Positions 1-42,075 of a DNA stretch of 42,075 bases are shown here, in pieces. Position 1 is the first letter of the stretch; every line of letters begins with the position of its first letter. The translations under genes were made by a program, and so were the position numbers. The notes under the pieces were generated by a model. The model was not told the origin of the DNA, did no database searches, and saw only the letters and a program-made list of their open reading frames with translations. The stretch is from positions 1 through 42,075 of the forward strand of contig JBNGDF010000020.1 in NCBI GenBank assembly GCA_049975265.1, read 5' to 3'. The stretch comes from Fidelibacterota bacterium (lineage in GTDB: Bacteria; Fidelibacterota; UBA2242).

Positions 1-358
1 TCGTTGAAATATTCTCCGTCCTTCTCAGATAGACTACTTCGCAGTATTCCTTCAGAAAATCAAATTTTCCTTTCCAGTCATCCCCCATGACAAAAACATC
101 AACCCTGTGTTTTTTTACATCATCAATTTTCTGTTCCCAGCGTGTCTCCGGGATGACTTTATCCACATATTTGATCGCGGCGACAATTTTCGCCCGATGC
201 TCATAGGGATAGGTACACTTTTTTCCTTTGACGGCATTGAATTCATCTGTGGAAACCGCCACAATCAGATAGTCGCCCAGTGCTTTCGCCCGCTCCAGCA
301 GACGCAAATGTCCGTAGTGAAACAGATCAAAGGTTCCGTATGTCAGCACTTTTTTCAT
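1..358 (-). CDS. tagD: Glycerol-3-phosphate cytidylyltransferase (3' end runs off the window)
   Basis: Absent from the ORF track; translated by hand on the minus strand from ATG at 358: MKKVLTYGTFDLFHYGHLRLLERAKALGDYLIVAVSTDEFN...VDVFVMGDDWKGKFDFLKEYCEVVYLRRTENIST. Contains the HxGH and RTxxIST motifs. Confidence 0.9.
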   Translation of the reverse strand, partial: MKKVLTYGTFDLFHYGHLRLLERAKALGDYLIVAVSTDEFNAVKGKKCTYPYEHRAKIVAAIKYVDKVIPETRWEQKIDDVKKHRVDVFVMGDDWKGKFDFLKEYCEVVYLRRTENIST

Positions 359-466
359 GTTGCTTGCTCTCCGGCTTTCCCGATTATTCGTTGAATACTA
401 TCTTCCAAATCCCGTTGTAACTGATAAAAATCACCGATAATTTAAAAAACAGACTGAGATTTTGAA

Positions 467-1036
467 TCATAGATTGTGATAATATTCGATTATGCCGGGC
501 AATATCTTCGTAAAATTCAAAAACACATGCCCGCCGGCGGGATGAATCACCAGTTTCGCCGGAGTATTCCGAAAATAATCTTCAGCGATCCGGTAATCCA
601 AAATTTCATCATCCCGATTCAGATGGACAGTGAGATTATCGGTTTTGAGATTCTCCGGAGGATAATATAGCCGCATCAGTTGCTCCAGTACTTCGGCATC
701 TTCCTCCGAATGCAGCGACCGCTGAAATTCTTTATCAGATTCCATTCTTCTTTTTACATCATGCATCGGTTGAATAGTCGGATTGAGTAAAATCGCCGGA
801 ATATTCAGAGCGGCATTTAGATGCAGCGCATAAAAACCGCCGAGGCTGCTCCCGATCAGGAGACATTTTTTCCGATCCGGCAATGTTTCAACATAATCAG
901 TCACCCGCCGCAGCGCCTTCTCCGGCTCCCGGGGCAAGTCCGGCGAAAATAGCGGCACTTCTGGGTAAAGGCGGCGGATCAGGCGCGCCTTGAACGCATT
1001 TCCATTACTACCGAATCCATGCAGATAAATAATCAC
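467..1036 (-). CDS. YqiA/YcfP-family (UPF0227) alpha/beta hydrolase esterase
   Basis: IIYLHGFGS, GSSLGG nucleophile elbow, DEILDY, GGH. Probable GTG start at 1036 with GGGAG upstream. Confidence 0.85.
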   Translation of the reverse strand: MIIYLHGFGSNGNAFKARLIRRLYPEVPLFSPDLPREPEKALRRVTDYVETLPDRKKCLLIGSSLGGFYALHLNAALNIPAILLNPTIQPMHDVKRRMESDKEFQRSLHSEEDAEVLEQLMRLYYPPENLKTDNLTVHLNRDDEILDYRIAEDYFRNTPAKLVIHPAGGHVFLNFTKILPGIIEYYHNL

Positions 1037-1142
1037 CTGGAATCTCCCATCTGATGGAAATTTACCCCGAAATAGGCACAGTCCCAAAATTAAATCGATA
1101 AGCGGTTGCAAAAATGAACACATGCTCTTACTTTATAACAAG

Positions 1143-1886
1143 ATGAAGCGTAAATGGGGTAACACATTCCGTAACATTTTGTATCCGGTGCTGCTGTTGA
1201 CGCCGCTTACCGTGGCTTCCTGTCGACCCACCGCAGATACAGAAACCCACTGGAAAAAACAGCGGGAAATCATGGTGGAGACTCAGATTGAAGCCCGGGG
1301 AATTCGGAATGCAAATGTTCTGAAAGCCCTCCGCACAGTTCCCCGGCACCGCTTTGTGCCGGAAAAATACCGGCGCTATGCCTATGCCGATTCACCGCTG
1401 CCAATTGGCGCTGACCAGACCATTTCCCAGCCCTATATCGTCGCGTTAATGACCGAATTAGCGGCTTTGAAGAAATCCGCCAAAGTCCTGGAAATCGGGA
1501 CCGGCTCGGGGTATCAGGCGGCGGTCCTGGCGGAAATTTGCGATTCTGTTTTCACGGTCGAAATCAATGCCACCCTATCTCAAACGGCACAGAGGGTAAC
1601 TGCTGAGCTGGGTTACCGCAATATCTGTTTTCGAATCGGTGACGGCTATGCCGGCTGGGCGGAACATGCACCTTACGATGCAATAATTATTACCTGCGCT
1701 CCGTCGGAATTACCGGAAACGCTGGTATTCCAATTGTGTGATGGTGGCACAATTGTCGTCCCCCTGGGGCAGACTTACGAGCAAAATCTGTATGTCTATA
1801 AAAAAGCAGGCAACAATATTCTGGTAGACCGCATTATTCCTGTCCGGTTCGTGCCTATGATCGATTCTACCGGTAGTCTCTATTGA
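1143..1886 (+). CDS. pcm: Protein-L-isoaspartate(D-aspartate) O-methyltransferase with an N-terminal signal/lipobox-like extension
   Basis: VPRHRFVP, QTISQPYIVA, VLEIGTGSGYQAA, GDGYAGW, YDAII, VRFVPM. Confidence 0.93.
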   Translation: MKRKWGNTFRNILYPVLLLTPLTVASCRPTADTETHWKKQREIMVETQIEARGIRNANVLKALRTVPRHRFVPEKYRRYAYADSPLPIGADQTISQPYIVALMTELAALKKSAKVLEIGTGSGYQAAVLAEICDSVFTVEINATLSQTAQRVTAELGYRNICFRIGDGYAGWAEHAPYDAIIITCAPSELPETLVFQLCDGGTIVVPLGQTYEQNLYVYKKAGNNILVDRIIPVRFVPMIDSTGSLY

Positions 1887-1991
1887 TTGACAAATTATTT
1901 CTTGCCGATTCCAAATATTTTAATTAGTCTTAGCCATAGGAATGCGAAATGCTGACTACGAAATGTAAATCCGTAACAAAAATATAGAATA

Positions 1992-2615
1992 ATGGTGATG
2001 CAATTGCCGACTCCGCCAAAATATCTGCCACTTTCGATACTGTTGAGTGTTCTATGCATAGCTGTGATGTGTTCGAAGTCCCGTCCCGAAAGCAAACAAA
2101 CGACGACTGAAAAGACGGATACGATCACGACTATTCCGGAAAAATTTATACCGGAGAGCAGCGGTACCAACCGGACGATTCAGCAAATGTGGAACGATTT
2201 CTATGCCGCTAAGGATTCGGTCGATTCGGCACTTGTGCGCTCGGATTTTCAAACGGTTAAGCACTTTCTGAAAAAAGCCGCTTTTCATGCCGTGGAAGTC
2301 TCGCGCAAAGACATCGCCGCCTGGCAATTAAATAATATCGGGTACTATTCGATCGTGGAATTCAAGCGCAAAACCGACTATGATCAGCGCATGCGCACCA
2401 TTGAAAATATGCGGCGCGGTCCCGAAAAGATCGTCTATATCAAAGAGACCAAAGAGCTCTTTAAAAAACACCTGCCTCTGCTTCTCGAAGCCTCTCAATA
2501 CCTTGAAGACGCCTATGAACTGGATAAAGACTTTAACAACGAGGATCGAACCCAAAAAATCTATAGCAATCTCACCTTTATCGACTGGGTTCGCAATTTC
2601 ACCAATGCACAATAA
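1992..2615 (+). CDS. Hypothetical exported or lipoprotein, helical (TPR-like)
   Basis: Hydrophobic N-terminus ending in a Cys, low-complexity linker, and helical AWQLNNIGY segment. Confidence 0.6.
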   Translation: MVMQLPTPPKYLPLSILLSVLCIAVMCSKSRPESKQTTTEKTDTITTIPEKFIPESSGTNRTIQQMWNDFYAAKDSVDSALVRSDFQTVKHFLKKAAFHAVEVSRKDIAAWQLNNIGYYSIVEFKRKTDYDQRMRTIENMRRGPEKIVYIKETKELFKKHLPLLLEASQYLEDAYELDKDFNNEDRTQKIYSNLTFIDWVRNFTNAQ

Positions 2616-2624
2616 ACGGCACCG

Positions 2625-3134
2625 TTAGCGGGCAATCATCACCAGCATCGCAACGGCACCAAAAATCTTGAGCAACTTCCCCCCAGCCGTTCCTGTAAAA
2701 GCACCAATTCCGGAATGGAGCGCTCCGCTTTGGTCGCCTGTCCGGAGAAAATCAACAAGATAGGCTCCGCAGAAGGCTCCGCCAAAAGCACCCAACAGCG
2801 AACCAAACAGTGGCACGATCCCGGTTCCCAGCACGGCGCCGACAATACTGCCGATAACCGCTCCCACCATCCCCGCCCGCGAGGCTCCGTAATGCCAGCT
2901 GCTCCAGGCGGTGATAATAAACTCAGCCAGTTCCAGCGCAATCGATATTCCCAGAAGAATTCCGATAATGCGCCAATCGATCCCGGGAGCCGAATCAACG
3001 AGTTGAAAAAGAAAATGAAACAGGACAATCAGGAAGGTCCCCGGCAGACTGAAAATAATTGAGACGACCGCAGTAAGCAGCAAAATCCAGTATATTATGG
3101 TCAAAAATATTGTCATTACGCTGCCTATATCCAT
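2625..3134 (-). CDS. DUF456-family membrane protein
   Basis: LPGT motif, YGASRAG and Gly-rich transmembrane helices. Confidence 0.75.
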   Translation of the reverse strand: MDIGSVMTIFLTIIYWILLLTAVVSIIFSLPGTFLIVLFHFLFQLVDSAPGIDWRIIGILLGISIALELAEFIITAWSSWHYGASRAGMVGAVIGSIVGAVLGTGIVPLFGSLLGAFGGAFCGAYLVDFLRTGDQSGALHSGIGAFTGTAGGKLLKIFGAVAMLVMIAR

Positions 3135-3760
3135 TTCAGAATAAAACCAAACAGAATGATTGCCGCCAGATCAACACCGTAGATCAAGCCGACTACTCTG
3201 ATTTTTCGTGAAAGCGATTCCATATCGAACACCCAGAATGAGACCAGAAAGAAATGCAGATAGCCGAACAGGACAATCAGGAACGGAAATTTTGCGCTCC
3301 ACCAGGCATATTCCCATGTCAGAGCATCGGCGGCATTCAACAGGATTTCCACAACGACGCAAAATATCGCAAATCCCACAGCATAAAACAGACGATTCGG
3401 CATTCCGAGAATTTTGACATCCCTGTCCGCCGGCAACAATTTCGCAAAAGTAATTCCGGCAACTGCAAACATGAAACAAATTTCAATATTCAAACCGATC
3501 AGAATCAGATAGGCGGTTTTCCCGGGCGCACCCCAAACCGGCGCATAATTGGTGAAGTGAAAGACCAGCCCGTTCCAGATTTCATTAAACCAGTCCATCC
3601 CCCAAAAAGCCAGTCCCGCCAAGACCAGATTCCAGTTCTTCCGTTCAATTTCCACCGCATAAACATACACGACGAATGCAAACAGCGGTATCACATACCA
3701 CTGAAACAGCGCCGGGTTGCGCAGATTGTCCAACGCCTGGGCAGCAAATTCGGTCGGCAT
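3125..3760 (-). CDS. Hypothetical multi-pass membrane protein
   Basis: About 6-7 hydrophobic segments, DWFNEIWN motif, GAGGGG RBS before MPTE. Confidence 0.7.
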   Translation of the reverse strand: MPTEFAAQALDNLRNPALFQWYVIPLFAFVVYVYAVEIERKNWNLVLAGLAFWGMDWFNEIWNGLVFHFTNYAPVWGAPGKTAYLILIGLNIEICFMFAVAGITFAKLLPADRDVKILGMPNRLFYAVGFAIFCVVVEILLNAADALTWEYAWWSAKFPFLIVLFGYLHFFLVSFWVFDMESLSRKIRVVGLIYGVDLAAIILFGFILKWI

Positions 3761-3808
3761 AGTAATTCCCCTCATCTTTTTTATAAATTTAACCGGTTTG
3801 ACGAAAAA

Positions 3809-4423
3809 CTAAAGATTATTTCCCGGGAATTTGACCGCTTCGATAAAAAAGCGATCGGCTTCATCCAGCGCTTTCCGTACCTGAAACCCGTTGATTTCCA
3901 GCATAACGGTTACCGATTCAAGGGGTTCAATAAGATCAAAGCAGACCGGTACGCCGATTCGGTTGTGCAGAGCATTCACTGCCTGGCGTCCTTCGGGATG
4001 AATGATATAGTAGCGTCCGCCGGGTTTTAAAATCCGGTGAAATTCCTGCAGCGCAATCTGTTTGTATTGCAGGTGAGGATACAGGCAGTAATTCATGACA
4101 ATGTCGACACTGGCGGACCGAATCGGGAGCTGTTCCGCCAGCGATTGAATCACATGCAGAGGTTCCCTGACCTGAGCCTGACAGCGGACAAGCATTTGCT
4201 CGGCAAAATCAATCCCGATAACCAAACCCCGCGGTACAAACGTCTGCAGATATTTCAATAAATGACCGGTTCCGCAGCCGATGTCGAGAATCGTCTCGGC
4301 ACCGTTAAAGCCGATTAATTTGTCCATTCCGGCAATAAATTGAATCTGCTGCTCGGATATAGACCAGTCTCCCGCTTTGTGATTGAAAAAGTCCTGGTGT
4401 CGCCTGTAAATGGATAGATTCAT
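3809..4423 (-). CDS. Class I SAM-dependent methyltransferase
   Basis: ILDIGCGTG, GIDFAEQML, EFHRILKPGG. Confidence 0.88.
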   Translation of the reverse strand: MNLSIYRRHQDFFNHKAGDWSISEQQIQFIAGMDKLIGFNGAETILDIGCGTGHLLKYLQTFVPRGLVIGIDFAEQMLVRCQAQVREPLHVIQSLAEQLPIRSASVDIVMNYCLYPHLQYKQIALQEFHRILKPGGRYYIIHPEGRQAVNALHNRIGVPVCFDLIEPLESVTVMLEINGFQVRKALDEADRFFIEAVKFPGNNL

Positions 4424-4441
4424 CAGTTTCCTGGGGTGTAT

Positions 4442-6340
4442 TTAATATCTGGCAGTGATTCCAAAGGTGAAATTTCTTCCGGGCATGGGAAATCCCGCCA
4501 TGGTTTCATACTGCCGATCCAGCAAATTTTTCACTTCGGCAAAAAGGCTCAGATGTCTCTTCAAATCGTATGTGCCCCGAAAATCCAACAGGAAATAATC
4601 CGGCAAGCGGACCGGATTCACCGTATAATCGTAAGGATTGTCATCGCTGTACAGACCGTCAATGTATTCCACCTGCAGAGTCAGACGCAACGGCTGAAGC
4701 GGTTGATACCGAATTCCGAGATTCATCTTGAGCGCCGGGCTGCCCAGTAAAATCCTGGAATTATCGGCGTATCCGGCTAACCAGTTGATTGCAACGCCAG
4801 GCGGCAGCAGGAGCTGTCCTTCGATTTCGGCGCCCCTAATCTCAGCCGTTCCGCTATTCTGATTAAGCGGTCTGCCCAGAGAAGGTACAAAGGCTGGTGC
4901 GATTAAATTTGTCACTTTTGTGTTATATATCGTCAGTGCCGTATTCAAAAAGCCCCGGTAGCGATTTTCCACAGTCAGTTCAATATTTTGCGAGGTCTCC
5001 GGCAACAGCTCTTCATTGGCGGGATTGAACAGATAAAGGTCTTTGATCGTGGGATTGCGGTAACCTTCGGCGTACTGGAACTTTACCGTCCAGCGGCGGG
5101 GCAGCAGCCAGGAGAATCCAGCCGCTGGAATCCACTGCTCTCCGGCGGTTGTATGCGTGGTATAGCGCAAACCGCCGTTCATGAAAAGGGACTTCAGCAA
5201 TTGATGCTGTACATTGATCAGTCCGCCGATTTCTTTTACATTGTTGCGGTAAATCGTACTGCTGTCAGCGGTTTCCAAAATAGTAGCTTCACCACCGTAT
5301 TTCCGAAAATCAAAACCGGCTGTCAGACGGCTCTTGTCGGCATAACGCCAGGTTTCATTCAGAACCAATCCAAGTGTGTAGTCCAAGGATGTATAATTAA
5401 CTGTATCCGCCGAAAATTTATCGCTGTCGTGAATCGTGTGATCACCGGCATTGTAATGCACCTTCAGTTCGGACTCCAGCGGGCTACCAGCATGGTTAAA
5501 CGTAAAATCACCGCCATATCGCAGAATGTCATACCAATGGTCACTGATCGGTGCATGAATCTGTCCCGGATCGTAAACCAGATAATCGGAGAAGTAGCTG
5601 TTCAGGGTTATTTCCGCTGCAGGACTCAGGAAATAGCGGGCTTCGAGATTACCGTTTTTCGAGATATAATCATCACACCCTTCTGTACGATAGCCATCAC
5701 TGCTGCGGTAGCCGGTCGACAGTGAACCATTCCATTTATCGGCACCGTAGCTCTGATGTAACGTGACCTGACCGGTATTGAAGCTGCCGTAACGTAGCGG
5801 CAGATGAACATGATACCCCTTTTCATGTTCATGATCAGTGATAATGTTAATTGCGCCTCCCATGGCGTTGGATCCATAAAGCAGTGATGCCGGACCACGC
5901 ATCACCTCAATCTCTTTGACATCATAAAACAGATAGGCGTCACTCAGCGGATGACCAAAGACCCCCATTATGTCCGGTCGCCCGTCAATCAGCACCAGAA
6001 CACCGGTGGTCGGATTACCGCCGACACCGCGGATGGAAATACCACCGGCGGCACCGCTGGCAACTCCATAGCCGATATTTGTTCGTCTCGTAACAAAAAG
6101 TCCCGGCACATTCTCGGAAATCAGGTCCAGCAGAGGAACATGCGCCTGCTCTTCAATTACCCGTTCCGAAATCTGGGAAATATTGAACGGCAATTCCCGT
6201 AGCGGCATCTCCACCCGTGTCCCGGTTACCACCACCGGATCGAAGGGAAAAACCTTCAGGGTGTCCTTAAATACCGGCTGACTGGCATTGGTGGCGATCG
6301 ATAAAATCAATATCAATAAATAGTGTTGTCCTTTGATCAT
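4442..6340 (-). CDS. TonB-dependent receptor (BtuB/CirA-like, possibly for nickel)
   Basis: Signal peptide, VVVTGTR TonB-box region, plug motifs LVLIDGRP and IEVMRGPASLLYGSNAMGGAINIIT, NLLDRQY, C-terminal GRNFTFGITARY. Confidence 0.93.
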   Translation of the reverse strand: MIKGQHYLLILILSIATNASQPVFKDTLKVFPFDPVVVTGTRVEMPLRELPFNISQISERVIEEQAHVPLLDLISENVPGLFVTRRTNIGYGVASGAAGGISIRGVGGNPTTGVLVLIDGRPDIMGVFGHPLSDAYLFYDVKEIEVMRGPASLLYGSNAMGGAINIITDHEHEKGYHVHLPLRYGSFNTGQVTLHQSYGADKWNGSLSTGYRSSDGYRTEGCDDYISKNGNLEARYFLSPAAEITLNSYFSDYLVYDPGQIHAPISDHWYDILRYGGDFTFNHAGSPLESELKVHYNAGDHTIHDSDKFSADTVNYTSLDYTLGLVLNETWRYADKSRLTAGFDFRKYGGEATILETADSSTIYRNNVKEIGGLINVQHQLLKSLFMNGGLRYTTHTTAGEQWIPAAGFSWLLPRRWTVKFQYAEGYRNPTIKDLYLFNPANEELLPETSQNIELTVENRYRGFLNTALTIYNTKVTNLIAPAFVPSLGRPLNQNSGTAEIRGAEIEGQLLLPPGVAINWLAGYADNSRILLGSPALKMNLGIRYQPLQPLRLTLQVEYIDGLYSDDNPYDYTVNPVRLPDYFLLDFRGTYDLKRHLSLFAEVKNLLDRQYETMAGFPMPGRNFTFGITARY

Positions 6341-6353
6341 TATCAGACCCCTT

Positions 6354-6776
6354 CTATACTCCGGAGAGATTTTTACCGGTGGATGTAAAACTAAGATCAC
6401 CGTGTTTCACGCCCCGTGCGCCGATCAGTTGATCCGACAGCTGCCGAATCTCCTTGTAGCGCCCCTTTAAAATAATCACCTCAAGACAGTTATGATGATC
6501 CAGATGAATGTGCGTACTGGATAAAATACTGGTGTAGTGTTCATGCTGTATATCGTTTAGTTTATCGGAAAGATGGGGAACATGATGATCGTACACCAGA
6601 TTCAGGACACCCACCATCGGGGCGTTTTTGTCGATATCTCTCTCCACCAGATAGTTGCGGATCATATCCCGAAAGGCTTCCGAACGGTTCCTGTAACCCC
6701 TGTGGGCAATTGCGGCATCGAAGCGTTTCAGAAGGTCAGCGGGAACCGATACCCCAAATCGTTTTAGTGCAGACAT
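6354..6776 (-). CDS. nikR: Nickel-responsive transcriptional regulator NikR
   Basis: RHH N-terminus RFGVSV...NRSEAFRD, YDHH, QHEH and the THIHLDHHNCLEV nickel site. Confidence 0.95.
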   Translation of the reverse strand: MSALKRFGVSVPADLLKRFDAAIAHRGYRNRSEAFRDMIRNYLVERDIDKNAPMVGVLNLVYDHHVPHLSDKLNDIQHEHYTSILSSTHIHLDHHNCLEVIILKGRYKEIRQLSDQLIGARGVKHGDLSFTSTGKNLSGV

Positions 6777-6789
6777 TTGCAGACTCCTT

Positions 6790-6816
6790 GTAGCACGTTA
6801 TTATTTTTCGTGTTAT
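6790..6816. promoter_or_regulatory. Putative NikR operator upstream of nikR
   Basis: GTAGCAC-N13-GTGTTAT imperfect inverted repeat with an AT-rich spacer. Equivalent to TAGCA-N15-TGTTA, one mismatch from the H. pylori TRWYA-N15-TRWYA consensus. Adjacent to the AAGGAG RBS and overlapping a TATAAC -10-like hexamer. Confidence 0.7.
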
Positions 6817-6835
6817 ATACAATTTAAAAAAATAT

Positions 6836-8194
6836 TCACGATTGTCCAGGACTTTTTAACGGAATTTCCACCGTGAAGGTACTGCCCTTCCCCAGCTCGC
6901 TTTCCACATAAATCTTGCCATTATACTGCTCCACGATCTGTTTGATGAGGGACAGTCCTAAGCCGGTGCCGAGACGTTCCATTTCGCGGGCGTTTTTACT
7001 TCGGTAAAATTCATCGAATATTTTCGGAAAATCCGATTCGGCAATGCCGATTCCGGTATCACTGACAGCAAAGCCGAATCTGGAGCGCTTGACAAACGGG
7101 GTAATCCGCACGGACGCCCCTTCGGGACTATACCGAATAGCGTTGTTGGTCAGATTGATCAATACCTTTTCCAGCGCCCGTCCGTCAAACTCAATGGTCG
7201 GGTTGGAATCGATTTTATCCACCTGAATCACGATCGCTTTGCGTTTGGCGTAATCCCGCAGCTGGTTGACAATTTTTTCCACCCAGCTGTTCAGGTGGAT
7301 TTTTTCAATCACTGCATCAGTGGCACCATGCCGATAGTGGGTCACATCGATCATGTCTTTGACCATATCCAGAACCTGATCGGTTCTGACCACCGCCCGC
7401 CGGATCATTCCGGCAATTTCAACATCCATTTTCGGGGTATAAACCTCTTCGATGACTGCCAGCATACTGCGCAGCGTTGTCAAGGGTGATTTGAGTTCAT
7501 GTGCCGTAAACCGGAAAATCTTATCCCGCTCTTTGATCGTATTTTCCAACTGAGCACTTTTTTCGTCAATAAGCTTTTTCAATTGGCGATAACCGGAAAT
7601 AAAATCCTTGATGACATAGGTAGCTGCGAATACCAGAACATAAAATGCGCACAACGACGTAATTAACACCGATAACCGGACCGGTTCGGCGCGGATTGTG
7701 TAGTTTTGTACAATTCCTTTATACTCAAGTATGCTCCAGAATGTCAGCAACAGCGCCGCAATGACGGCATTGATATAGGGAACATTGCCCAGAAACAGGA
7801 TTCCGGAAATAATTATTATAACAATATATATAAAGAAAAACGGATTGCCGATACCACCGATATAATGCACTGTAAAGGAGATGAGGATCATGTCGATGAT
7901 AACCTGTATCTCCGTAAAAATCAGCTCCTGCCGGAAATTATTGAATGGAAAATAGCGATAGAGAAAAAAATAGACCAGATTCAGACCCACCAGGATTCCG
8001 GCAATGATGTAGAGCTCCGAATAGGCGATCCGAAAATCCAGAATACGCTGACTGATGGGAATTGCCGCCAGCAATCCAAACAGAGCTACCCAGCGCAGAT
8101 TGATAATCCAGCCAATCCGAATCCGCAACGTATCCAGAGTATGGAATGGCAGAATCAGTTTGACCGTTTTATGCTCTTTTCCGTTGATAGCCAT
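6836..8194 (-). CDS. Membrane sensor histidine kinase (HisKA/HATPase)
   Basis: Multiple transmembrane helices, AHELKSPL H-box, NLTNNAIRYS, DTGIGI, GTGLGL, GKGSTF. Confidence 0.92.
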   Translation of the reverse strand: MAINGKEHKTVKLILPFHTLDTLRIRIGWIINLRWVALFGLLAAIPISQRILDFRIAYSELYIIAGILVGLNLVYFFLYRYFPFNNFRQELIFTEIQVIIDMILISFTVHYIGGIGNPFFFIYIVIIIISGILFLGNVPYINAVIAALLLTFWSILEYKGIVQNYTIRAEPVRLSVLITSLCAFYVLVFAATYVIKDFISGYRQLKKLIDEKSAQLENTIKERDKIFRFTAHELKSPLTTLRSMLAVIEEVYTPKMDVEIAGMIRRAVVRTDQVLDMVKDMIDVTHYRHGATDAVIEKIHLNSWVEKIVNQLRDYAKRKAIVIQVDKIDSNPTIEFDGRALEKVLINLTNNAIRYSPEGASVRITPFVKRSRFGFAVSDTGIGIAESDFPKIFDEFYRSKNAREMERLGTGLGLSLIKQIVEQYNGKIYVESELGKGSTFTVEIPLKSPGQS

Positions 8195-8197
8195 AAC

Positions 8198-8659
8198 CTA
8201 TTGAAAAAATGCGTTGATCTCTTTCTGTACCACCGGACTCAGTGACCTCCCCATCTCCATATTTTCAGGCTCAATACCGATATACAGGAATTGTTCAACC
8301 CCTTCATGGCGCAGATACTCTTCGATTAGTTTGATTGAATAGCTATGCGTACTGAATCCTCTGGTTGCGACCACATCCTGCCCAATTTCCCCGATATTGC
8401 CGGGTTTTTCATTCCGGCGGGCGGTATCGAAAAATACAACCAGCTTCGGCTTATGGCGGATAATCGCGGCGAGATGGTTCTCCGGTGTTGTTCCGGCAAA
8501 GATAAAGTGTGCCCCATGTACGATTCTCCGCTGTTCAATCTCTTTCATCAATCTTAATCCGGCACCATCATCCCGCCGGATGGGATTGCCCAATCCGACC
8601 ATCACGATATCGTTATACTGAAAGACAGATATTCTCTCCTGCAACTCCTTAGAATTCAT
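8198..8659 (-). CDS. Hydrogenase maturation protease (HycI-like)
   Basis: GLGNPIRRDDGAG, TPEN, FSTH, IGIEP. Confidence 0.88.
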   Translation of the reverse strand: MNSKELQERISVFQYNDIVMVGLGNPIRRDDGAGLRLMKEIEQRRIVHGAHFIFAGTTPENHLAAIIRHKPKLVVFFDTARRNEKPGNIGEIGQDVVATRGFSTHSYSIKLIEEYLRHEGVEQFLYIGIEPENMEMGRSLSPVVQKEINAFFQ

Positions 8660-9251
8660 CCGCAACAACGGTCTTGTGCCGGCAGACCGGACACATCATT
8701 TTGATAATATCTTCCCGGCGGATACGCTCCTTGACAGAAGATGGGTTCAACTTTGTAAACTGCCGCTGTGTTTCGATCAGCAGGTTCGGATGGGCATAGG
8801 CTTTGGCGCCCAGCCGCTCCCTGACAAACAGCAGATGATCGTGGCAGGCAAAGGCGTTACCGCAGGATTCACAAATCGCCAGCTCCTTTTCTACGGTTTC
8901 ATACACCTCCGGCGCTTTCAGGTTCGGAGTAGAAAGTACATACTCGCTGGATAATTTTATTCCTTTGCCCGTAATACACTTTTCTTCGCACTGACCGCAC
9001 TGGGAACAGGAGCCGTAGTCAAGCACCAGTTTGCGGGTACCGGTTTTGAGGTCGTCGATGATTTCAATTGCATTCGTCGGACATACCTGGGCGCAAGTGC
9101 CACAGCCGACACAATCCTCTTCGTAATATTTTGGATAACCGCGGTACTCTTCAGGTGCGACATAGGGTTTGAACGGGTATTTTGTGGTGTATGCCGGTGA
9201 AAAGAGTGATTTCAGCGCTTCGGCGACTTCGCGTAATTTTGGCAGAAACAT
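8649..9251 (-). CDS. Hydrogenase 4Fe-4S subunit (NuoI/HycF/MbhN-like)
   Basis: CVGCGTCAQVCP and CSQCGQCEEKC, plus extra C-terminal CESC and CPVC pairs. Confidence 0.88.
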   Translation of the reverse strand: MFLPKLREVAEALKSLFSPAYTTKYPFKPYVAPEEYRGYPKYYEEDCVGCGTCAQVCPTNAIEIIDDLKTGTRKLVLDYGSCSQCGQCEEKCITGKGIKLSSEYVLSTPNLKAPEVYETVEKELAICESCGNAFACHDHLLFVRERLGAKAYAHPNLLIETQRQFTKLNPSSVKERIRREDIIKMMCPVCRHKTVVADEF

Positions 9252-35614: not shown

Positions 35615-36307
35615 TTATTGGAAAAGGTTCGTCGGTGCGGTGTTTAGCGGTTCGATACAGCGTGGCGAGTTGTTTTGAACATTATTGACATACGTTGATA
35701 CAGGATAAGCTTCCAATTCACCGGAACAGGGTTTCAGGATTTTCAGAGCCTCATGGAGGCGGTTACCGTCACACTGCAACCAGACATCCAGCTGATCCGG
35801 CTGTAAAACTGCCGGCATTCGCGGATGAATAAATTCCAGTTCTTGGCTTGCCGCACTTGTGATGACAGTATAGGTAAATACCGGATTTCCCTGATTATCA
35901 GATACTTGTGACCAGAGACCAGCCATCGGTAAAATCCGCCGATCCGGCTTTGTGATGTAATACGGCTGCTTCCCTGTAGATATTTTTTGCCATTCATAAT
36001 AACCATCAGTAATGACAACACAGCGGTTATTCGCAAGCAAGTCAGAAAAACTCCGCTTTTCCGTCAGCGTCTCGGAACGGGCATTGATAAAGATGGGCGG
36101 ATTCGGTTTATCCTGTGCCCAGATGGGAACCAATCCCCACCGCATCGGTTTGACAATTCGCTGACCGTCATATATCAAAATCGGCATGGTTGCCGTCGGT
36201 GCTACGTTGTAATTGGGCTGATGATCAAAGGAATCGTCCCATATCTGGATGGACAGCTCCTCGATGATCTCCATCTTACCTTTGGTTAATGTCTTTCGCC
36301 CGCACAC
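35615..36307 (-). CDS. SOS response-associated peptidase (SRAP/YedK/HMCES-like)
   Basis: N-terminal MCGR (GTG start), YNVAPT, WGL, NARSET, GYYEW, HPRMP. Confidence 0.94.
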   Translation of the reverse strand: MCGRKTLTKGKMEIIEELSIQIWDDSFDHQPNYNVAPTATMPILIYDGQRIVKPMRWGLVPIWAQDKPNPPIFINARSETLTEKRSFSDLLANNRCVVITDGYYEWQKISTGKQPYYITKPDRRILPMAGLWSQVSDNQGNPVFTYTVITSAASQELEFIHPRMPAVLQPDQLDVWLQCDGNRLHEALKILKPCSGELEAYPVSTYVNNVQNNSPRCIEPLNTAPTNLFQ

Positions 36308-36319
36308 GGTTCTAATTTA

Positions 36320-36485
36320 CACGGAGTTTCACAGAGAATCCACTGAGATGCACAGAGATTTTATTAATATTTCACTTCAAATGCCTAGATCACAAAGAAT
36401 CAGCAAAGAACAGCACTTATTGCAATTTAATTTCAACATAAACATTTCTCCGTGTTTCCCTGTGTTAACTCTGTGAACCTCTGTG
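36320..36485. repeat. Heptamer-array palindrome E1 (solo)
   Basis: CAC(G/A/T)GAG at 36320, 36330, 36341, 36351; inverted heptamers at 36448, 36458, 36469, 36479; 90-bp AT-rich centre. Confidence 0.85.
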
Positions 36486-36497
36486 TCAAAAAATCTC

Positions 36498-39400
36498 TCA
36501 CCATTCCGTCGCATAGCGGGTTTCCGTCATAACCGGTTTACGAATAATCCCTTCTTTCTTCGGCATCAGTTTCTCCGTAATCCGCCGCAAACTGCCCAGT
36601 TTCTCCACCGTAATTGTATGAACACCAAATGCGACCTCCACCTTTCCCCGAATTACAAACAGGCTTTCCCAGTTCAGCAGATCGCCGAATTCTTTATAAA
36701 TCTCCGGAAACATCACGCATTCAAATATATCGGTTTCATCTTCAAAGGTCACAAACTCCATGGGTTCGCGCTGCCGGGTTGAGGTTACTTTGCGGGTAAT
36801 GTAAACCCCCGCCAGGTTAATCGTCTGCCCCACGAGTTGCGGGATATCCCTCGCTTTACGGACCCGATCGCCTAAAACCGGCAGATAGCGTTCCAGCGGA
36901 TGCTCGGAAATCGGGAATCCGAAAGATTCAATCTCCAGCGTAATGCGTTCCTGATGCGTCAGGGGCTCCCGGGAATAGGGAATCTGCACCGGTTCTCCCA
37001 CCCCGTCCTGCAGGTAATAGCTGGCGACCTGAAATGCGATTTCCTTGTGATTCATTTCCGGCTCCAGCTCCGCAAAACAGCCGGCGTTGGTCAGTGCCAT
37101 GGCATCCGCCAGATCAATATCCACCCGCACCAGGAAATCTTTCAATGACTTGAACTCACCGGCTTTGCGCTCCGCCAGAATCGCAGCTACCGCCTTGCTT
37201 TGCAGGTTTTTGATTGCCATGAATCCTATCCGAATCCGGTCCTTACGCCCGCGGTATTCCCGCCAACTGGTATTGACATAAGGCGGCAGAATTTTGATAC
37301 CAAAGCGCCGGGCTTCACTCAAATAAGCAAACGCCGAATAATAACCGCCCTGATTGGAGATCACCGCCGCCAGGAATTCCGCCGGGTAATGGGCTTTCAG
37401 ATAGGCGCAGGTAAAGGACAGCATGGCGTAAGACGCCGAGTGCGGTTTGCAAAAGGAATAACCGGAAAAGGACTCAATCATGCTCCAGAGCGTCTCCGCC
37501 AATTCCCGGGTATAGCCGCGATGCACGGACCCGTCGATGAACTTCTGTCTCCAGATTGGAACTAAATGCGCCAGCGCCGGACGGGAAATAACCTTGCGCA
37601 CGTAGTCGGATTCCGCATAGCCGAAACCGGCAATGTCCCGCGCCACCATGGAGACCTGCTCCTCGTACACCATAATTCCGTAGCTCTCTGACAGGCATTT
37701 CAAATCGGGATGCAGCAATTTCCAGGGTTTACCATGAATCCGCTCCAGCATAATATTGATAAAACGGTTCGCCGCCGGGCGAATAATCGACGAGTAAATC
37801 ACCACATGCTCAAAATCCACTTTGCCCGCCTTTTGCAGTAGTTGCCGGGTCGCCGGGCTTTCGATATAAAACACGCCCATGGTGCGCCCGGCTTTCATCA
37901 ACGCTTCGGTTTTTGGATCGCCGATGGGCTGGATTTTGTGATAATCCATATATTCGCTGCGATACAGCCCAATCTGCTTCAACGTGTCCCGCACCACCGC
38001 CAGCGAGCGGTTACCGAGGATATCAATCTTCAACAATCCCGAATCTTCGACCTGATCTTTTTCCCACTCCACAATCTGAACACCCTTTGGTGCAACCAGC
38101 ACCGGCACGTACTTGCGGATTTCATCGGGCGCAATAATAATGCCGCCGGGATGTACCGACGACGTGCGAAACGCACCAACGATCTTTTCACTTTGCTGAA
38201 TAATCTGAAGCAATGTATCATCAAGATCAATGTTTTTGAAGCGGGGATCATTGCGAATCCATTCCAGCAATTGAGTTTTGCGGGCAAAATACCCGATCCG
38301 CTTTGTGACCGACTTTATCTCTTCATTTGACAAACCATACACTTTGCTCACTTCTCTGATTGCCGACCGCGGCTGCATAAATACCTGGCTGGACACCATA
38401 GCAGTCCGTTCATTGCCATATTTTTTAAAAATGTAATCCAGAATGTCGTCGCGCTCATCCCAGGGAAAATCCACATCAATATCAGGCATGTCAACCCGTT
38501 CCGGATGAATAAACCGCTCAAAAACCAGGTTGTACTTAATCGGGTCCACCTGAGTAATGAACAGGCAGTAGCTGACCACCGACGCTGCTCCGGAACCGCG
38601 CCCAATCGTAGAGTTTGTCTGCCGAACAATGTCCCAGACTACCAGGAAATAGGGTGCAAAACCCTTCTGCGTGATCAGCTTCAATTCGTACTCGATCCGG
38701 TCTCTGATTTTTTCACTGATCGCACCGTAACGCCGTTTGGCGCCTTCGTACACCAGCTTACGCAACTGCCGGTTGGCTTTATAGGTTTCCTTCAGTGACA
38801 TGTTCGGGAAAATCGTATTCACATAATTCCAGTCGGTCTTGCAGCGTTCCGCCAGATATTGGGAGTTGTTGATCGCCGCCAGGCTGTTGGGAAAGAGCCT
38901 GATCATCTCCTTTTCGGAACGAAAGAAATGGCGTTCACTCTTATAATCGCCGGACTCCAATTGCGATAATGTCTTGTTTCTATCAATGGCTCGCAGGATT
39001 TTATGGGTTTTCTGATCATTGGGATTCAGAAAACAGACATCGCCGGTGGCGACAATCTCCAGATGAAACAGGCGACTCAGCTGCCAGGCATGCCGTTCCG
39101 TAACACCGGGGCGCAATTCCACAAACAGGTGCGTCTCCGGCACGAAACACGCCAGTTTTGCCAGAACCGTCTCCTGGTGACTCAGGACAAACAGCCCGGA
39201 CTTCCGCTTTGCCAGCAAATCTGTAACGGACCGTTCCGGATCATCGTGGACTGCCGAAATAATCCGGCACAGGTTTTCGTAGCCCTGCCGGCTTTCCGCC
39301 AGCAAAATGGTATCCTCACCCGCACTGAGGATATTTGTGCCCGCTATGGGCTTAATAGCCGCCTCCTTCGCCAATTGGACAAATCGGATAAACCCCCAGA

Positions 39401-39527
39401 GTCCGTTGACTTCGGTCAATGCCAGATATTGCTGACCATGGGCTTGCGCCCGGGCAAGCAGCTCCTGAGGCGAAGCGGTGCCGCGCATTTTGGAAAATGT
39501 CGAGTGTGTATTCAGATGGACAAACAT
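36498..39527 (-). CDS. dnaE2: C-family DNA polymerase III alpha subunit, error-prone DnaE2-type by context
   Basis: Degenerate PHP domain (HLNTHS, LTEV), GRGSGAAS, PDIDVDF, LKIDILG, YSFCKPHS, OB fold; lies in an operon with lexA and imuB. Confidence 0.85.
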   Translation of the reverse strand: MFVHLNTHSTFSKMRGTASPQELLARAQAHGQQYLALTEVNGLWGFIRFVQLAKEAAIKPIAGTNILSAGEDTILLAESRQGYENLCRIISAVHDDPERSVTDLLAKRKSGLFVLSHQETVLAKLACFVPETHLFVELRPGVTERHAWQLSRLFHLEIVATGDVCFLNPNDQKTHKILRAIDRNKTLSQLESGDYKSERHFFRSEKEMIRLFPNSLAAINNSQYLAERCKTDWNYVNTIFPNMSLKETYKANRQLRKLVYEGAKRRYGAISEKIRDRIEYELKLITQKGFAPYFLVVWDIVRQTNSTIGRGSGAASVVSYCLFITQVDPIKYNLVFERFIHPERVDMPDIDVDFPWDERDDILDYIFKKYGNERTAMVSSQVFMQPRSAIREVSKVYGLSNEEIKSVTKRIGYFARKTQLLEWIRNDPRFKNIDLDDTLLQIIQQSEKIVGAFRTSSVHPGGIIIAPDEIRKYVPVLVAPKGVQIVEWEKDQVEDSGLLKIDILGNRSLAVVRDTLKQIGLYRSEYMDYHKIQPIGDPKTEALMKAGRTMGVFYIESPATRQLLQKAGKVDFEHVVIYSSIIRPAANRFINIMLERIHGKPWKLLHPDLKCLSESYGIMVYEEQVSMVARDIAGFGYAESDYVRKVISRPALAHLVPIWRQKFIDGSVHRGYTRELAETLWSMIESFSGYSFCKPHSASYAMLSFTCAYLKAHYPAEFLAAVISNQGGYYSAFAYLSEARRFGIKILPPYVNTSWREYRGRKDRIRIGFMAIKNLQSKAVAAILAERKAGEFKSLKDFLVRVDIDLADAMALTNAGCFAELEPEMNHKEIAFQVASYYLQDGVGEPVQIPYSREPLTHQERITLEIESFGFPISEHPLERYLPVLGDRVRKARDIPQLVGQTINLAGVYITRKVTSTRQREPMEFVTFEDETDIFECVMFPEIYKEFGDLLNWESLFVIRGKVEVAFGVHTITVEKLGSLRRITEKLMPKKEGIIRKPVMTETRYATEW

Positions 39528-39540
39528 GGTTTTTTAGCTA

Positions 39541-39646
39541 CACGGAGATACACAGAGGTAACACGGAGTTACACTGAGCACTATTTAAAAAAGAAAAAAT
39601 CTCCGTGGCTTTCCGTGAATCCTTCGTGTTGCTCCGTGTCATAATC
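39541..39646. repeat. Heptamer-array palindrome E2
   Basis: Heptamers at 39541, 39551, 39562, 39572 and inverted at 39601, 39611, 39622, 39632. 39561-39646 is identical to 40061-40146. Confidence 0.95.
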
Positions 39647-39649
39647 CTC

Positions 39650-40021
39650 TCACATTACAAAACGTTTAAGACCGTTTTTTAACTGTTTGACATTGAAATT
39701 GATTAATAACCCAACTTCTTTTTTCGCCAGTTTCAGATAAGTCAGTATCTGGGCTTCATGAACCGGTGAGATTTCATCGATCGATTTCAACTCAACGATC
39801 ACTTTATTATCGACCAGAATATCAATCCGGTATCCACATTCCAACTGAATTTCTTTGTAAACCAGCGGTATCGGTTTCTGGCGCTCGGTATACAATCCCA
39901 TCTTCTGTAATTCATAAACCAGACACTCTTCATAAGTCGATTCGAGCAAACCAGGACCCAACTGGCTATGGACTTCCAGCGCAACTTTGATAATTTTCTC
40001 CGTCAGATCAGCGAATTTCAC
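39650..40021 (-). CDS. GxxExxY protein (PD-(D/E)XK-like nuclease fold)
   Basis: LGPGLLESTYE, RIDILVDNKVIVELKS, QILTYLK, GLLINF; GTG start after AAGGAG. Confidence 0.93.
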   Translation of the reverse strand: MKFADLTEKIIKVALEVHSQLGPGLLESTYEECLVYELQKMGLYTERQKPIPLVYKEIQLECGYRIDILVDNKVIVELKSIDEISPVHEAQILTYLKLAKKEVGLLINFNVKQLKNGLKRFVM

Positions 40022-40037
40022 AAAAGCTCCTTTATAG

Positions 40038-41309
40038 TTACACAGAGGTGCACAGAGAAGACACGGAGTTACACTGAGCACTATTTAAAAAAGAAAAAAT
40101 CTCCGTGGCTTTCCGTGAATCCTTCGTGTTGCTCCGTGTCATAATCTCTTTCTTCTTCGGTATCAGCAGGCTTGCCGCCGAACAGATGCTCCCGAATCCG
40201 TATTTATCCCGAATTTTATCCAGCGTCACCGAAAGCCTATCGGGTCGGTTATCTCTGAACAATTCCATCTGCTCATTGACAGCCTTGAAATTTGTAGCAT
40301 CCAGCAAGAGTGACCGGATGCGATTGCGCCGGTAATTGGCCCGGATAAACAGCGCAATCGCTTCGCTAATCACGGTTTCGTCATCATTGTAGCGCACCGC
40401 ACCGCTGCAAGATTTCTTGAATCCATCGGTGTAATGGACTTCCAACCGCAGTGATCGGGCAACCTGACAACGACGGCGCAGCCGATAGGCAAGCTGCTCA
40501 GCTAAATTCCGAACCGTGGCAATTAAAATATCTTCATCGTTGGTATCCTCCTCCAAAACAGTCTGCCTGATAATATGATCCCGCAGCTGCGGCGGCTTAA
40601 CTGCGGAATTATCGCGACCGTGGGCTTCCATAGCCAACCTGCGGTAATGCTGACCAAACAGCGTCTTCCCGGATTCCGATTGATTGATAATCGTCTGGAT
40701 ATTTTTCACCTGGTAAAGAAACAGAAATTTGATCATCCGGCTGACGGCTTTTTCATTGGTGGCAGGCAAAACCTGCGATGGCAGCGGTGCCAGGAAACGG
40801 GGTTCGTTGCCCCATTCCACACGGTATATTTTATCGGGAACGACTGCCGTGGAAATGCTGCTCACCAGTTTATTGGCGCTGATACCGATCTGGCTGCTCA
40901 TGCTCATACGATTGCGTATGTCTGTTATAATCAGTCCGCCGGTTCTCAGATCATCCTTGTAAATATTGCGCATCCCGTTCATATCGAGATAATATTGCCC
41001 GAATGCTGCGGGTTCGGCGACGGGCGAATAGCTCGCCACCATCTGGTAAAGATGATGATGCAGCCTGGCATACAGGGTTGCATTGTAAGGCAGAAGTCGT
41101 ACACTGTGCGACATTTTCCGGGCTACCGAAACCTTCAAGCCCTGACAGAGCCCCTCCTCTTTGGCTTCCGGTGACAATGCCACAATACTGCCATTCTGAT
41201 GATGAGAGGAAATGACGGCAATCGGTCGCGTCCGCAGACTGCTGTCCAGAATGCGCTCCGCCTGGAGTTCAAAATCTTCTAACCTGATATGATAAATCCC
41301 GTCGTACAT
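40038..41309 (-). CDS. Inactive Y-family polymerase homologue (ImuB/DinB-like)
   Basis: IMS-like layout (RPIAVI, LSPEAKEEGL, YYLDM, GISANKLVS, LDKIRDKYG) with the catalytic acidic residues degenerate. Confidence 0.8.
   Translation of the reverse strand: MYDGIYHIRLEDFELQAERILDSSLRTRPIAVISSHHQNGSIVALSPEAKEEGLCQGLKVSVARKMSHSVRLLPYNATLYARLHHHLYQMVASYSPVAEPAAFGQYYLDMNGMRNIYKDDLRTGGLIITDIRNRMSMSSQIGISANKLVSSISTAVVPDKIYRVEWGNEPRFLAPLPSQVLPATNEKAVSRMIKFLFLYQVKNIQTIINQSESGKTLFGQHYRRLAMEAHGRDNSAVKPPQLRDHIIRQTVLEEDTNDEDILIATVRNLAEQLAYRLRRRCQVARSLRLEVHYTDGFKKSCSGAVRYNDDETVISEAIALFIRANYRRNRIRSLLLDATNFKAVNEQMELFRDNRPDRLSVTLDKIRDKYGFGSICSAASLLIPKKKEIMTRSNTKDSRKATEIFSFLNSAQCNSVSSLCTSV
40041..40146. repeat. 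Heptamer-array palindrome E3
   Basis: Direct repeat of E2 exactly 500 bp away; overlapped by the imuB C-terminus. Confidence 0.95.
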
Positions 41310-41320
41310 GGTTTTTTTAG

Positions 41321-41439
41321 TTACACGGAGGTTCACTGAGATGACACAGAGCTACACTGGGCACCATTATTAAATACATAAAATATCTCCGTGGCTCTCC
41401 GTGTCCATCTCCGCGCAACTCCGTGTCACAATCTCTCAC
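41321..41439. repeat. Heptamer-array palindrome E4
   Basis: 41328-41439 is identical to 41503-41614 (112 bp, offset 175). Confidence 0.95.
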
Positions 41440-41495
41440 ATTGCAAACAGTTTCCCGAATACTCACATTAAATTTCATTAGCAAACCAGCTCCTT
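41436..41495 (-). pseudogene. Probable internally deleted GxxExxY gene remnant
   Basis: AAGGAGCT RBS plus ATG AAA TTT start (intact gene: AAGGAGCT..GTG AAA TTC). End AAACTGTTTGCAATGTGAGAG matches the intact gene end AAACGTTTTGTAATGTGAGAG at 18/21. Confidence 0.6.
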
Positions 41496-41614
41496 TTACA
41501 CAGAGGTTCACTGAGATGACACAGAGCTACACTGGGCACCATTATTAAATACATAAAATATCTCCGTGGCTCTCCGTGTCCATCTCCGCGCAACTCCGTG
41601 TCACAATCTCTCAC
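41496..41614. repeat. Heptamer-array palindrome E5
   Basis: Direct repeat of E4; includes the lexA stop codon. Confidence 0.95.
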
Positions 41615-42075
41615 TCATACTGCCGCAGGATTGCCAGAACCACTCCACCAATGCGAAATTCGTCTTCCGGAGATACCCGAATCACTTCATAATCCGGGTT
41701 GCGGGGATGTAACTCGACGCCACCGGATTTCGGATAATAGCGTTTCAGTGTGGCTTCACCATTGACAAAAGCCACCACGGTTTGTCCCGGCGACGCCTCG
41801 GGTTTCCGGCGGACAATCACATAATCACCATCCTCAATATGGTCATCAATCATGGAATCGCCCTTGACCCTCAAAACGTAGTTGTCAGGATGAATGTACG
41901 AAAGTGGTACCTCGATGGTTTCGCGATTCTCCACCGCTTCCAGCGGATAGCCTGCCGCAATCAGACCAAGCAGTGGCAATTCATTATACCCCGGCTGGTC
42001 CGACACCGTCAGCGCCCGCTTGGCATTGTATTTCCCGCGCTCCAGAACACCGAGTTTTTCCAGCTCCCGCACATA
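41611..42075 (-). CDS. lexA: LexA repressor (5' end outside the window)
   Basis: End of the winged HTH (LEKLGVLER), IAAG cleavage site, VKGDSM serine and ATLKR lysine. Confidence 0.92.
   Translation of the reverse strand, partial: YVRELEKLGVLERGKYNAKRALTVSDQPGYNELPLLGLIAAGYPLEAVENRETIEVPLSYIHPDNYVLRVKGDSMIDDHIEDGDYVIVRRKPEASPGQTVVAFVNGEATLKRYYPKSGGVELHPRNPDYEVIRVSPEDEFRIGGVVLAILRQYE

Follow-up and report, generated by a model that had tools for sequence, protein, structure and literature searches.

A GxxExxY gene and its heptamer palindromes in a bacterial lexA operon as a likely selfish unit

A lexA operon of a Fidelibacterota bacterium raises the question of why related palindromes should fill the junctions between its genes, and what a small gene of the GxxExxY family, enclosed by two near-identical copies, has to do with them. 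The operon lies on a stretch of 42,075 nucleotides (the window), which is contig C20 (JBNGDF010000020.1) of the 2.86-Mb draft genome G000 (GCA_049975265.1). On the minus strand the genes follow in the order lexA, imuB-like, GxxExxY, dnaE2-like and SRAP, and the stretch 5' of lexA lies outside the contig. We consider it probable, though well short of certain, that the GxxExxY gene and the heptamer arrays around it are one selfish unit, whose protein likely recognises its own repeats and is predicted to cut within the arrays or next to them, and that repair would copy the unit into neighbouring junctions. The observations behind this reading are the association of gene and repeats, the filled, empty and replaced states of the same junctions, the covariation of repeat motif and protein, intact catalytic residues and purifying selection.

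Each element of the window consists of an arm of four heptamers of the CACNGAG type (10-12 nt spacing), an A/T-rich loop and an inverted arm. The five related palindromes that an earlier note on this DNA had described as filling the lexA-imuB-dnaE2-SRAP junctions were all found in place, and together with the gene and its surroundings they are as follows.

36320..36485, unstranded: E1, a solo heptamer palindrome with 4+4 heptamers in its arms and a 90-nt loop, at the dnaE2/SRAP junction (from the sequence; orthologous solo elements in G002, G014, G001 and G010)
39541..39638, unstranded: E2, a palindrome that separates the stop of the GxxExxY gene from the start of dnaE2, with 86 bp identical to E3 (from the sequence)
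39650..40021, minus strand: the intact GxxExxY (TIGR04256/PF13366) gene, 123 aa, likely start GTG at 40021, stop at 39650 (profile matches)
40027..40033, minus strand: a purine run resembling a ribosome-binding site that E3 carries at its end, before the GxxExxY start (from the sequence; similar runs precede the gene in relatives)
40041..40138, unstranded: E3, a palindrome 5' of the GxxExxY gene (from the sequence; the imuB frame passes through it)
41324..41425, unstranded: E4, a palindrome ahead of the imuB start, with 112 bp identical to E5 (from the sequence)
41433..41497, minus strand: the likely decayed 3' end of a GxxExxY gene (gapped alignment to the gene end; also present in sequencing runs X3 and X11)
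41499..41600, unstranded: E5, a palindrome directly past the lexA stop (from the sequence)

The longest identical run was exactly 86 bp for E2 and E3, which lie 500 apart around the intact gene, and exactly 112 bp for E4 and E5, which lie 175 apart, as had been reported. The remnant of a GxxExxY gene that had been seen between E4 and E5 stood in part: it could be aligned, over three gaps, with the final ~75 nt of the gene and reads GLLMKFNV where the gene has GLLINFNV, but genome-wide blastn at E 0.05 did not match it to the gene. Its position and weak similarity make it likely that this piece is the 3' end of such a gene. The arms are imperfect, and 19-27 of 38 positions agree between opposing arms in the five elements. 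The elements are not a product of chance, because the genome held 15 strict CACNGAG arms and two shuffles held none.

The duplications are real and not assembly artefacts, as the same layout was found in public contigs of relatives from independent sequencing runs. In these runs the shared element piece had about twice the depth of the GxxExxY gene, whose depth equalled that of its flanks (121 against 64 in run X4; 20 against 8 in run X7). The independent contigs end at elements, and one X2 contig spans 38870-40070, bridging E2 and the gene; the remnant piece was recovered from the two runs named above. In run X11 the gene contig had a depth of 97 and the element 114, with 20-26 for the neighbours, a weak hint of tandem or circular units that extra loci or other strains would fit too. 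No excision joints were found in the contigs of the runs examined, and contigs cannot show circles.

Does the partnership hold beyond this operon? The expected enrichment of palindromes beside GxxExxY genes was borne out with a fixed heptamer pattern devised from GxxExxY flanks; a pattern-free motif finder was too noisy. At least six linked heptamers within 180 nt were present at 104 of 178 genes, compared to 16 of 1961 other open reading frames (ORFs) of G000 and 5 of 1780 in the shuffled control. As the pattern was derived from GxxExxY flanks, held-out phyla make the fair test, and there 43 of 77 genes from three other phyla had at least six linked heptamers. The gene lay inside inverted arms in 73 of the 178 cases and between outward arms, as in the window, in 21. 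Both neighbouring genes were co-oriented with the GxxExxY gene at 172 of 227 loci, and the neighbours were functionally unrelated (57 of 435 neighbour ORFs scanned). A general link to the SOS response was considered and rejected: SOS genes flank 11 of 262 genes, all 11 in the bacterial family of G000. Of 61 related genomes 48 had GxxExxY matches; for three other phyla, with 51 genomes each, the figure was 13-23, and none of 50,697 phage records had a match. Within the bacterial family the number of matches per genome ranged from 1 to 32, with candidate expansions in G008 (32), G025 (27) and G021 (25) against 1-11 in the other members.

The spacing of the heptamers peaked at 9 nt across the family, within a range of 8-11 nt, and the description of the palindromes as phased, in the sense of helical phasing, was therefore rejected family-wide. 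Forward and reverse arms had the same substitution spectrum, with no G-U bias on the coding strand, and this, together with the 9-nt spacing, argues against both helical phasing and selection for an RNA stem on the coding strand. An Rfam scan gave two matches, both far below the gathering scores.

The gene between E2 and E3 is indeed a GxxExxY gene, with 156.8 bits for TIGR04256 (cut-off 35) and 149.4 bits for PF13366, and the motif residues G24, E27 and Y30 are conserved. Where PMC3424549 names PF13366, it gives the function as Unknown. Among 271 proteins, the active-site residues were conserved in 270 (D67), 267 (E77), 270 (K79), 268 (Q91) and 266 (Y95), and D67, E77-x-K79 and Q91-xxx-Y95 fit motif II, motif III and QxxxY of the RecB type in the definitions given within PMC8610317. 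A structure model built from the alignment had a pLDDT of 96 (a single-sequence prediction with a pLDDT of 47 was discarded), and its best fold matches were nearly all PD-(D/E)XK proteins, among them Cas4 SSO0001 (Z 7.9, rmsd 3.6, 99 aligned) and restriction enzymes, with BpuSI at Z 7.8; Hjc matched at E 0.005. According to the model the fold belongs to the PD-(D/E)XK superfamily, which leaves the exact reaction unfixed, and nuclease activity is predicted. A sequence search against solved structures gave nothing useful, and a Pfam scan to E 0.1 showed PDDEXK_3, Cas4 and Tox-REase-9 only, with no GIY-YIG domain (cd10448). The dN/dS of the gene was ~0.05-0.06, and its dS was 1.05 and 1.44 compared to 1.26 and 1.27 for dnaE2. 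The gene is thus old in the lexA operon and functionally maintained, yet frequently lost or replaced. A GxxExxY domain was also seen inside a 1062-aa open frame in another genome (G089:C7 20120-20467, L263), possibly as a fusion.

Whether the protein reads the repeats was approached through their covariation. The 204 matches comprised 192 distinct genes, 188 after removal of short or broken ones; 139 of these had heptamers sufficient for a class and 126 gave a call for base 5. On the protein tree the motif class changed 35 times among 110 classified rows, compared to 72.5 when shuffled (minimum 65), a pattern that co-inheritance alone can produce. Residue 7 was the best predictor of base 5, at the top of 123 columns, with threonine going with G, and on a tree built without residues 6-9 this rule was followed by 10-11 of 20 independent pairs over all branches and opposed by none. 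As the column had been selected from 123, the rule was fixed beforehand and then tried on new phyla. Of the 83 held-out genes 57 were callable: threonine went with G in 24 of 26, alanine, valine or cysteine with A in 12 of 12, and glycine once with G and twice with A. The pooled counts were 75 G and 3 A for threonine, 36 A and 1 G for alanine, valine or cysteine, and 38 A and 15 G for serine; post hoc, serine followed by glycine went with G in 6 of 6, and serine followed by lysine, arginine, asparagine or histidine with A in 27 of 28. Two other links were set aside, a weak one between base 2 and residue 123 (asparagine with G) and one between base 7 and residues 110-117 that reflects one deep split. 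Since one residue tracks one base of the heptamer, the protein likely reads the repeats. We infer that base 5 is recognised through residues 7-8, in the N-terminal helix, with Thr7 as the candidate specificity residue of the window protein.

We compared the lexA operon in 20 relatives and 15 further loci and judged the state of each junction by eye in its printed sequence. The orthologous lexA-imuB-dnaE2 junctions were found filled, empty or with remnants, so that the anticipated polymorphism is present. The gene follows lexA in G001, G014, G010, G029, G020, G028 and G025, lies at imuB-dnaE2 in G000 and G011, and is present at both junctions in G005, where the two copies differ at 10 of 390 nt. 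G002, with a DnaE2 that is 91% identical, has solo elements at all three junctions and no gene, and remnant-like pieces occur in G014, G011 and G029; at these junctions such elements are absent in G008, G023, G018, G031, G030 and G051. In G005, G020 and G025 the gene belongs to another GxxExxY clade (44-47% identical), the G005 protein has Ala7, and CACAAAG/CACCAAG arms occupy the entire intergenic stretch. G003 and G019 have these arms too, with no gene within the part seen. The gene of G028 is closer (69%) and encodes Ser7, and the four junction elements seen there keep the design of the window but have A as base 5. Of 10 gene-bearing operons, 9 have junction elements that, as far as seen, all fit the heptamer class of the resident gene (for G025, two flanks only).

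Arms of two or three heptamer classes were found side by side at the lexA-imuB and imuB-dnaE2 junctions of L037, L046, L047, L048 and L361, which suggests repeated visits by different clades. In run X7, a low-depth contig has a loose end at window position 40153, where imuB gives way to an arm of the CACCAAG/CACAAAG class; this is a co-occurring relative with a rival element at the same junction. A different, A/T-rich tandem heptamer repeat lies at imuB-dnaE2 of G008, G023 and G018 (L041, L042, L043) and another at the start of contig C42 of G000 (150-200), possibly as elements of another small-gene family.

How did the near-identical pairs arise? The earlier note had proposed that the nuclease gene inserts at a resident palindrome and duplicates it. 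Such a simple duplication is unsupported, because E2 and E3 are closer to a gene-borne element than to the orthologous empty site: against the element 3' of the G014 gene, at another junction, E3 scored 144 and E2 145, and against the empty site of G002, which is that of another species and not the ancestor, 102.5 and 114. The replacement of a whole intergenic stretch by a different heptamer in other clades also counts against it, as does the fact that the gene most commonly lies inside inverted arms and not between two elements. The outer ends of E2 and E3 resemble the ends at the lexA-imuB junction, with one heptamer variant in common with the resident, and the lexA-side arm of E5, copied into E4, resembles its counterpart in G001. 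Judged by these similarities, the pairs appear to be homogenised mosaics. Across the family, both flanks of a gene shared locus-specific sequence of at least 20 nt at 36 of 177 loci, compared to 4 of 176 tree-neighbour controls, and pieces of the own gene were repeated in the flanks at 11 of 241 loci, mostly as 3' ends.

G000 holds four full GxxExxY genes, on contigs C20, C49, C33 and C28. The arms beside those on C49 and C33 are of the CACAGAG type and those on C28 are of another word; 13 of the 15 strict CACNGAG arms sit on the gene-holding contigs C20, C33 and C49 of this draft, in which contig ends may lose repeats. Repeats of the window class are few and local in this genome. The C49 gene has a gene-less element several genes downstream in the same operon; this operon (92-9013), with the gene and three elements, contains ORFs that we take to resemble cas4, type III effector genes and cas1. 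At the end of contig C42 (16700-16872) 60 nt between arms are identical to the 3' end of the C33 gene, and this end of C42 nearly equals the start of C33 (1-500), which is probably a tandem copy with one unit decayed.

Under the reading as a selfish unit, the protein would likely recognise its own heptamer via the N-terminal helix and cut DNA, either in double-stranded arrays or in strands exposed as single-stranded DNA or as a cruciform. Host recombination would repair the break from a nearby element, rewriting neighbours to the motif of the resident enzyme, and would yield near-identical pairs and tandem copies; sometimes the gene would be deleted, leaving a solo element or a remnant. The promoterless gene would gain expression by coming to lie behind a stop codon and ahead of a ribosome-binding site, in the direction of the host genes, and in the lexA operon of this lineage it would be expressed under DNA damage. 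The window would record one copy that decayed at lexA-imuB and another that persists at imuB-dnaE2, and selection on a constantly re-copying gene would explain its conservation despite loss. More tentatively, and as something that we regard as possible but do not favour, the GxxExxY proteins, 120 residues long, may form a large family of site-specific nucleases with a recognition code in which residue 7 sets base 5, mobilising themselves without a transposase by cutting their own arrays, walking along operon junctions, rewriting neighbours and evicting rival clades.

Several points weigh against a selfish, repeat-reading unit. The fold matches all have Z < 8 with no one relative outstanding, and a gene with the same dS as dnaE2 is a long resident of the operon and not a fast mover. 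No arm was present on either side of 18 of 178 genes, only 15 strict arms of the window class exist in G000, and one junction element of the mixed G001 operon mismatches the resident gene. On strongly supported branches there were 5 independent pairs only, which is not significant; the Fisher value for residue 7 and base 5 in the held-out genes (1.4e-6) ignores kinship on the tree, and held-out serine was split 8/8 although A had been predicted. Additionally, duplication or deletion of the RecA type between repeats could move a gene by one junction without any nuclease, and neither the phage records nor the plasmid records, of which 8 of 72,556 had a match, point to a vehicle for long-range spread.

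In its working the system is most like Ssn with its NTS repeats and REPIN with RAYT, and it lies outside both by enzyme type. Ssn is a GIY-YIG nuclease with hairpin repeats of 20-50 nt (NTS/SRM) for which cleavage of single strands was shown (Chenal et al., 2025, PMC11893778). Ssn and the GxxExxY system alike have a small single-domain nuclease gene between its own palindromic repeats in many phyla, in a repeat-gene-repeat layout, and homologs paired with repeat variants. In contrast to the GIY-YIG enzyme, the window protein is of the PD-(D/E)XK/RecB type, in its repeats, which are few and local, a variable loop separates two arms with 3-4 heptamers each, junction replacement is documented, and cleavage is predicted only. 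The likeness leads to the alternative that survives best, namely a domesticated Ssn-like system in which a repeat-specific single-strand nuclease is kept because the host profits from it, perhaps through an influence on recombination or on incoming DNA at operons marked by repeats, and the rearrangements are by-products of host recombination. The long vertical residence under purifying selection equal to that of dnaE2, the RecB-type QxxxY motif, the 8-11 nt spacing that is not bound to a helical face and the Ssn-like arrangement (PMC11893778) fit this well. However, the same junctions are often emptied or taken by other clades, the number of matches per genome is highly variable in the bacterial family (1 to 32), and the host operons are functionally unrelated, with SOS neighbours at few genes only; we therefore consider it unlikely.

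REP and REPIN sequences with their RAYT tyrosine transposase are over-represented genome-wide (Bertels and Rainey, 2011, PMC3116915). The analogy drawn earlier to REP/RAYT partnerships was right for the paired extragenic inverted repeats, the gene-less copies and the linkage of repeat groups to specific enzymes. It failed for the tyrosine transposase and the genome-wide over-representation, as here the enzyme is a restriction-fold nuclease, G000 has ~15 arms of the window class, and the nuclease gene, too, changes its junction.

A second analogy, to integron gene cassettes, was abandoned. The core boxes of integron attC sites have the consensus RYYYAAC and GTTRRRY, and such boxes were present in 0 of the 5 elements, whichever strand was read. 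On another contig (C52, 761-1705), unlinked to the window locus, G000 encodes an integron integrase that scores above its curated threshold. Gene and repeats could also have been delivered as a block by an outside agent, in which case the protein would be blind to the repeats, and all homogenisation, duplication and deletion would be the work of host recombination. Such co-inheritance by itself makes motifs follow the protein tree, the strongly supported independent pairs are as few as stated above, and besides the integrase other tyrosine recombinases are encoded elsewhere in G000. However, the codon of residue 7 lies outside the arrays and yet predicts base 5, in the pair test as in the new phyla, the elements of G028 have switched operon-wide with the resident variant, and attC boxes are absent, which makes a passive block improbable.

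Free-standing homing endonucleases are intergenic nuclease genes thought to spread by cutting and recombinational repair. Their target is a single long site in an allele without them, whereas the target suggested here is a repeat carried by the gene itself, at many unrelated junctions. ORF-bearing intervening sequences of 23S rRNA are part of an rRNA, from which RNase III excises them, and their ORFs encode proteins of the S23 type (PMC4990558). Their small gene is enclosed by complementary arms, as in the commonest layout of the GxxExxY family, whereas in the window the elements sit between protein-coding genes, and the GxxExxY gene has them on its two sides as direct repeats. That the palindromes fold in mRNA and are processed in a similar, RNase III-like way, with the protein acting on an RNA hairpin, is very improbable, since the predicted RNA folds of -32 to -42 kcal/mol, the strong co-orientation with host genes, the gene-in-loop layout and the excision described for the Coxiella 23S sequences (PMC4990558) are set against equal substitution in both arm directions without coding-strand G-U bias, spacers between heptamers that are unpaired across the arms, and replacement at the DNA level, which it leaves unexplained.

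A literature search, with subscription journals and supplements outside its scope, found no description of a GxxExxY-repeat partnership or of the residue-base link; one paper on record for GxxExxY refers to it in passing only. A widespread family gains a specific candidate substrate and a prediction that is testable at the level of residues. If the reading as a selfish unit is true, RAYT and Ssn would be joined by a further enzyme fold, the third, that goes with dispersed repeats of its own, and operon junctions and the C-terminal ends of host proteins would be reshaped by a mobile unit without a transposase. Nucleases this small, with specificity variants occurring in nature, could also serve as tools.

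The host genes of the operon are the following.

35615..36307, minus strand: SRAP family gene (profile match)
36498..39527, minus strand: DNA polymerase III alpha, dnaE2-like, a second copy in the genome (profile matches)
40038..41309, minus strand: Y-family/IMS polymerase-like gene, imuB-like (profile matches)
41611..42075, minus strand: lexA, cut by the contig end (profile match)

The imuB frame crosses E3 to its stop at 40038 (window 40038-40166), displacing the native C-terminal tail that element-free relatives have, and the ImuB tails are unlike one another in every element-bearing lineage. As the tail is cut at varying points and the elements are read in frame, insertion is imprecise. 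A literature search for the LexA operator of this lineage found none. Just 5' of lexA, a conserved direct repeat with the consensus TTACTTACGAGTAACTTACGAGTA was seen in 12 of 15 relatives printed (L032, L036, L037, L039-L044, L046, L047 and L049), the other three stretches having begun at a wrong start; it is a candidate LexA operator of the lineage.

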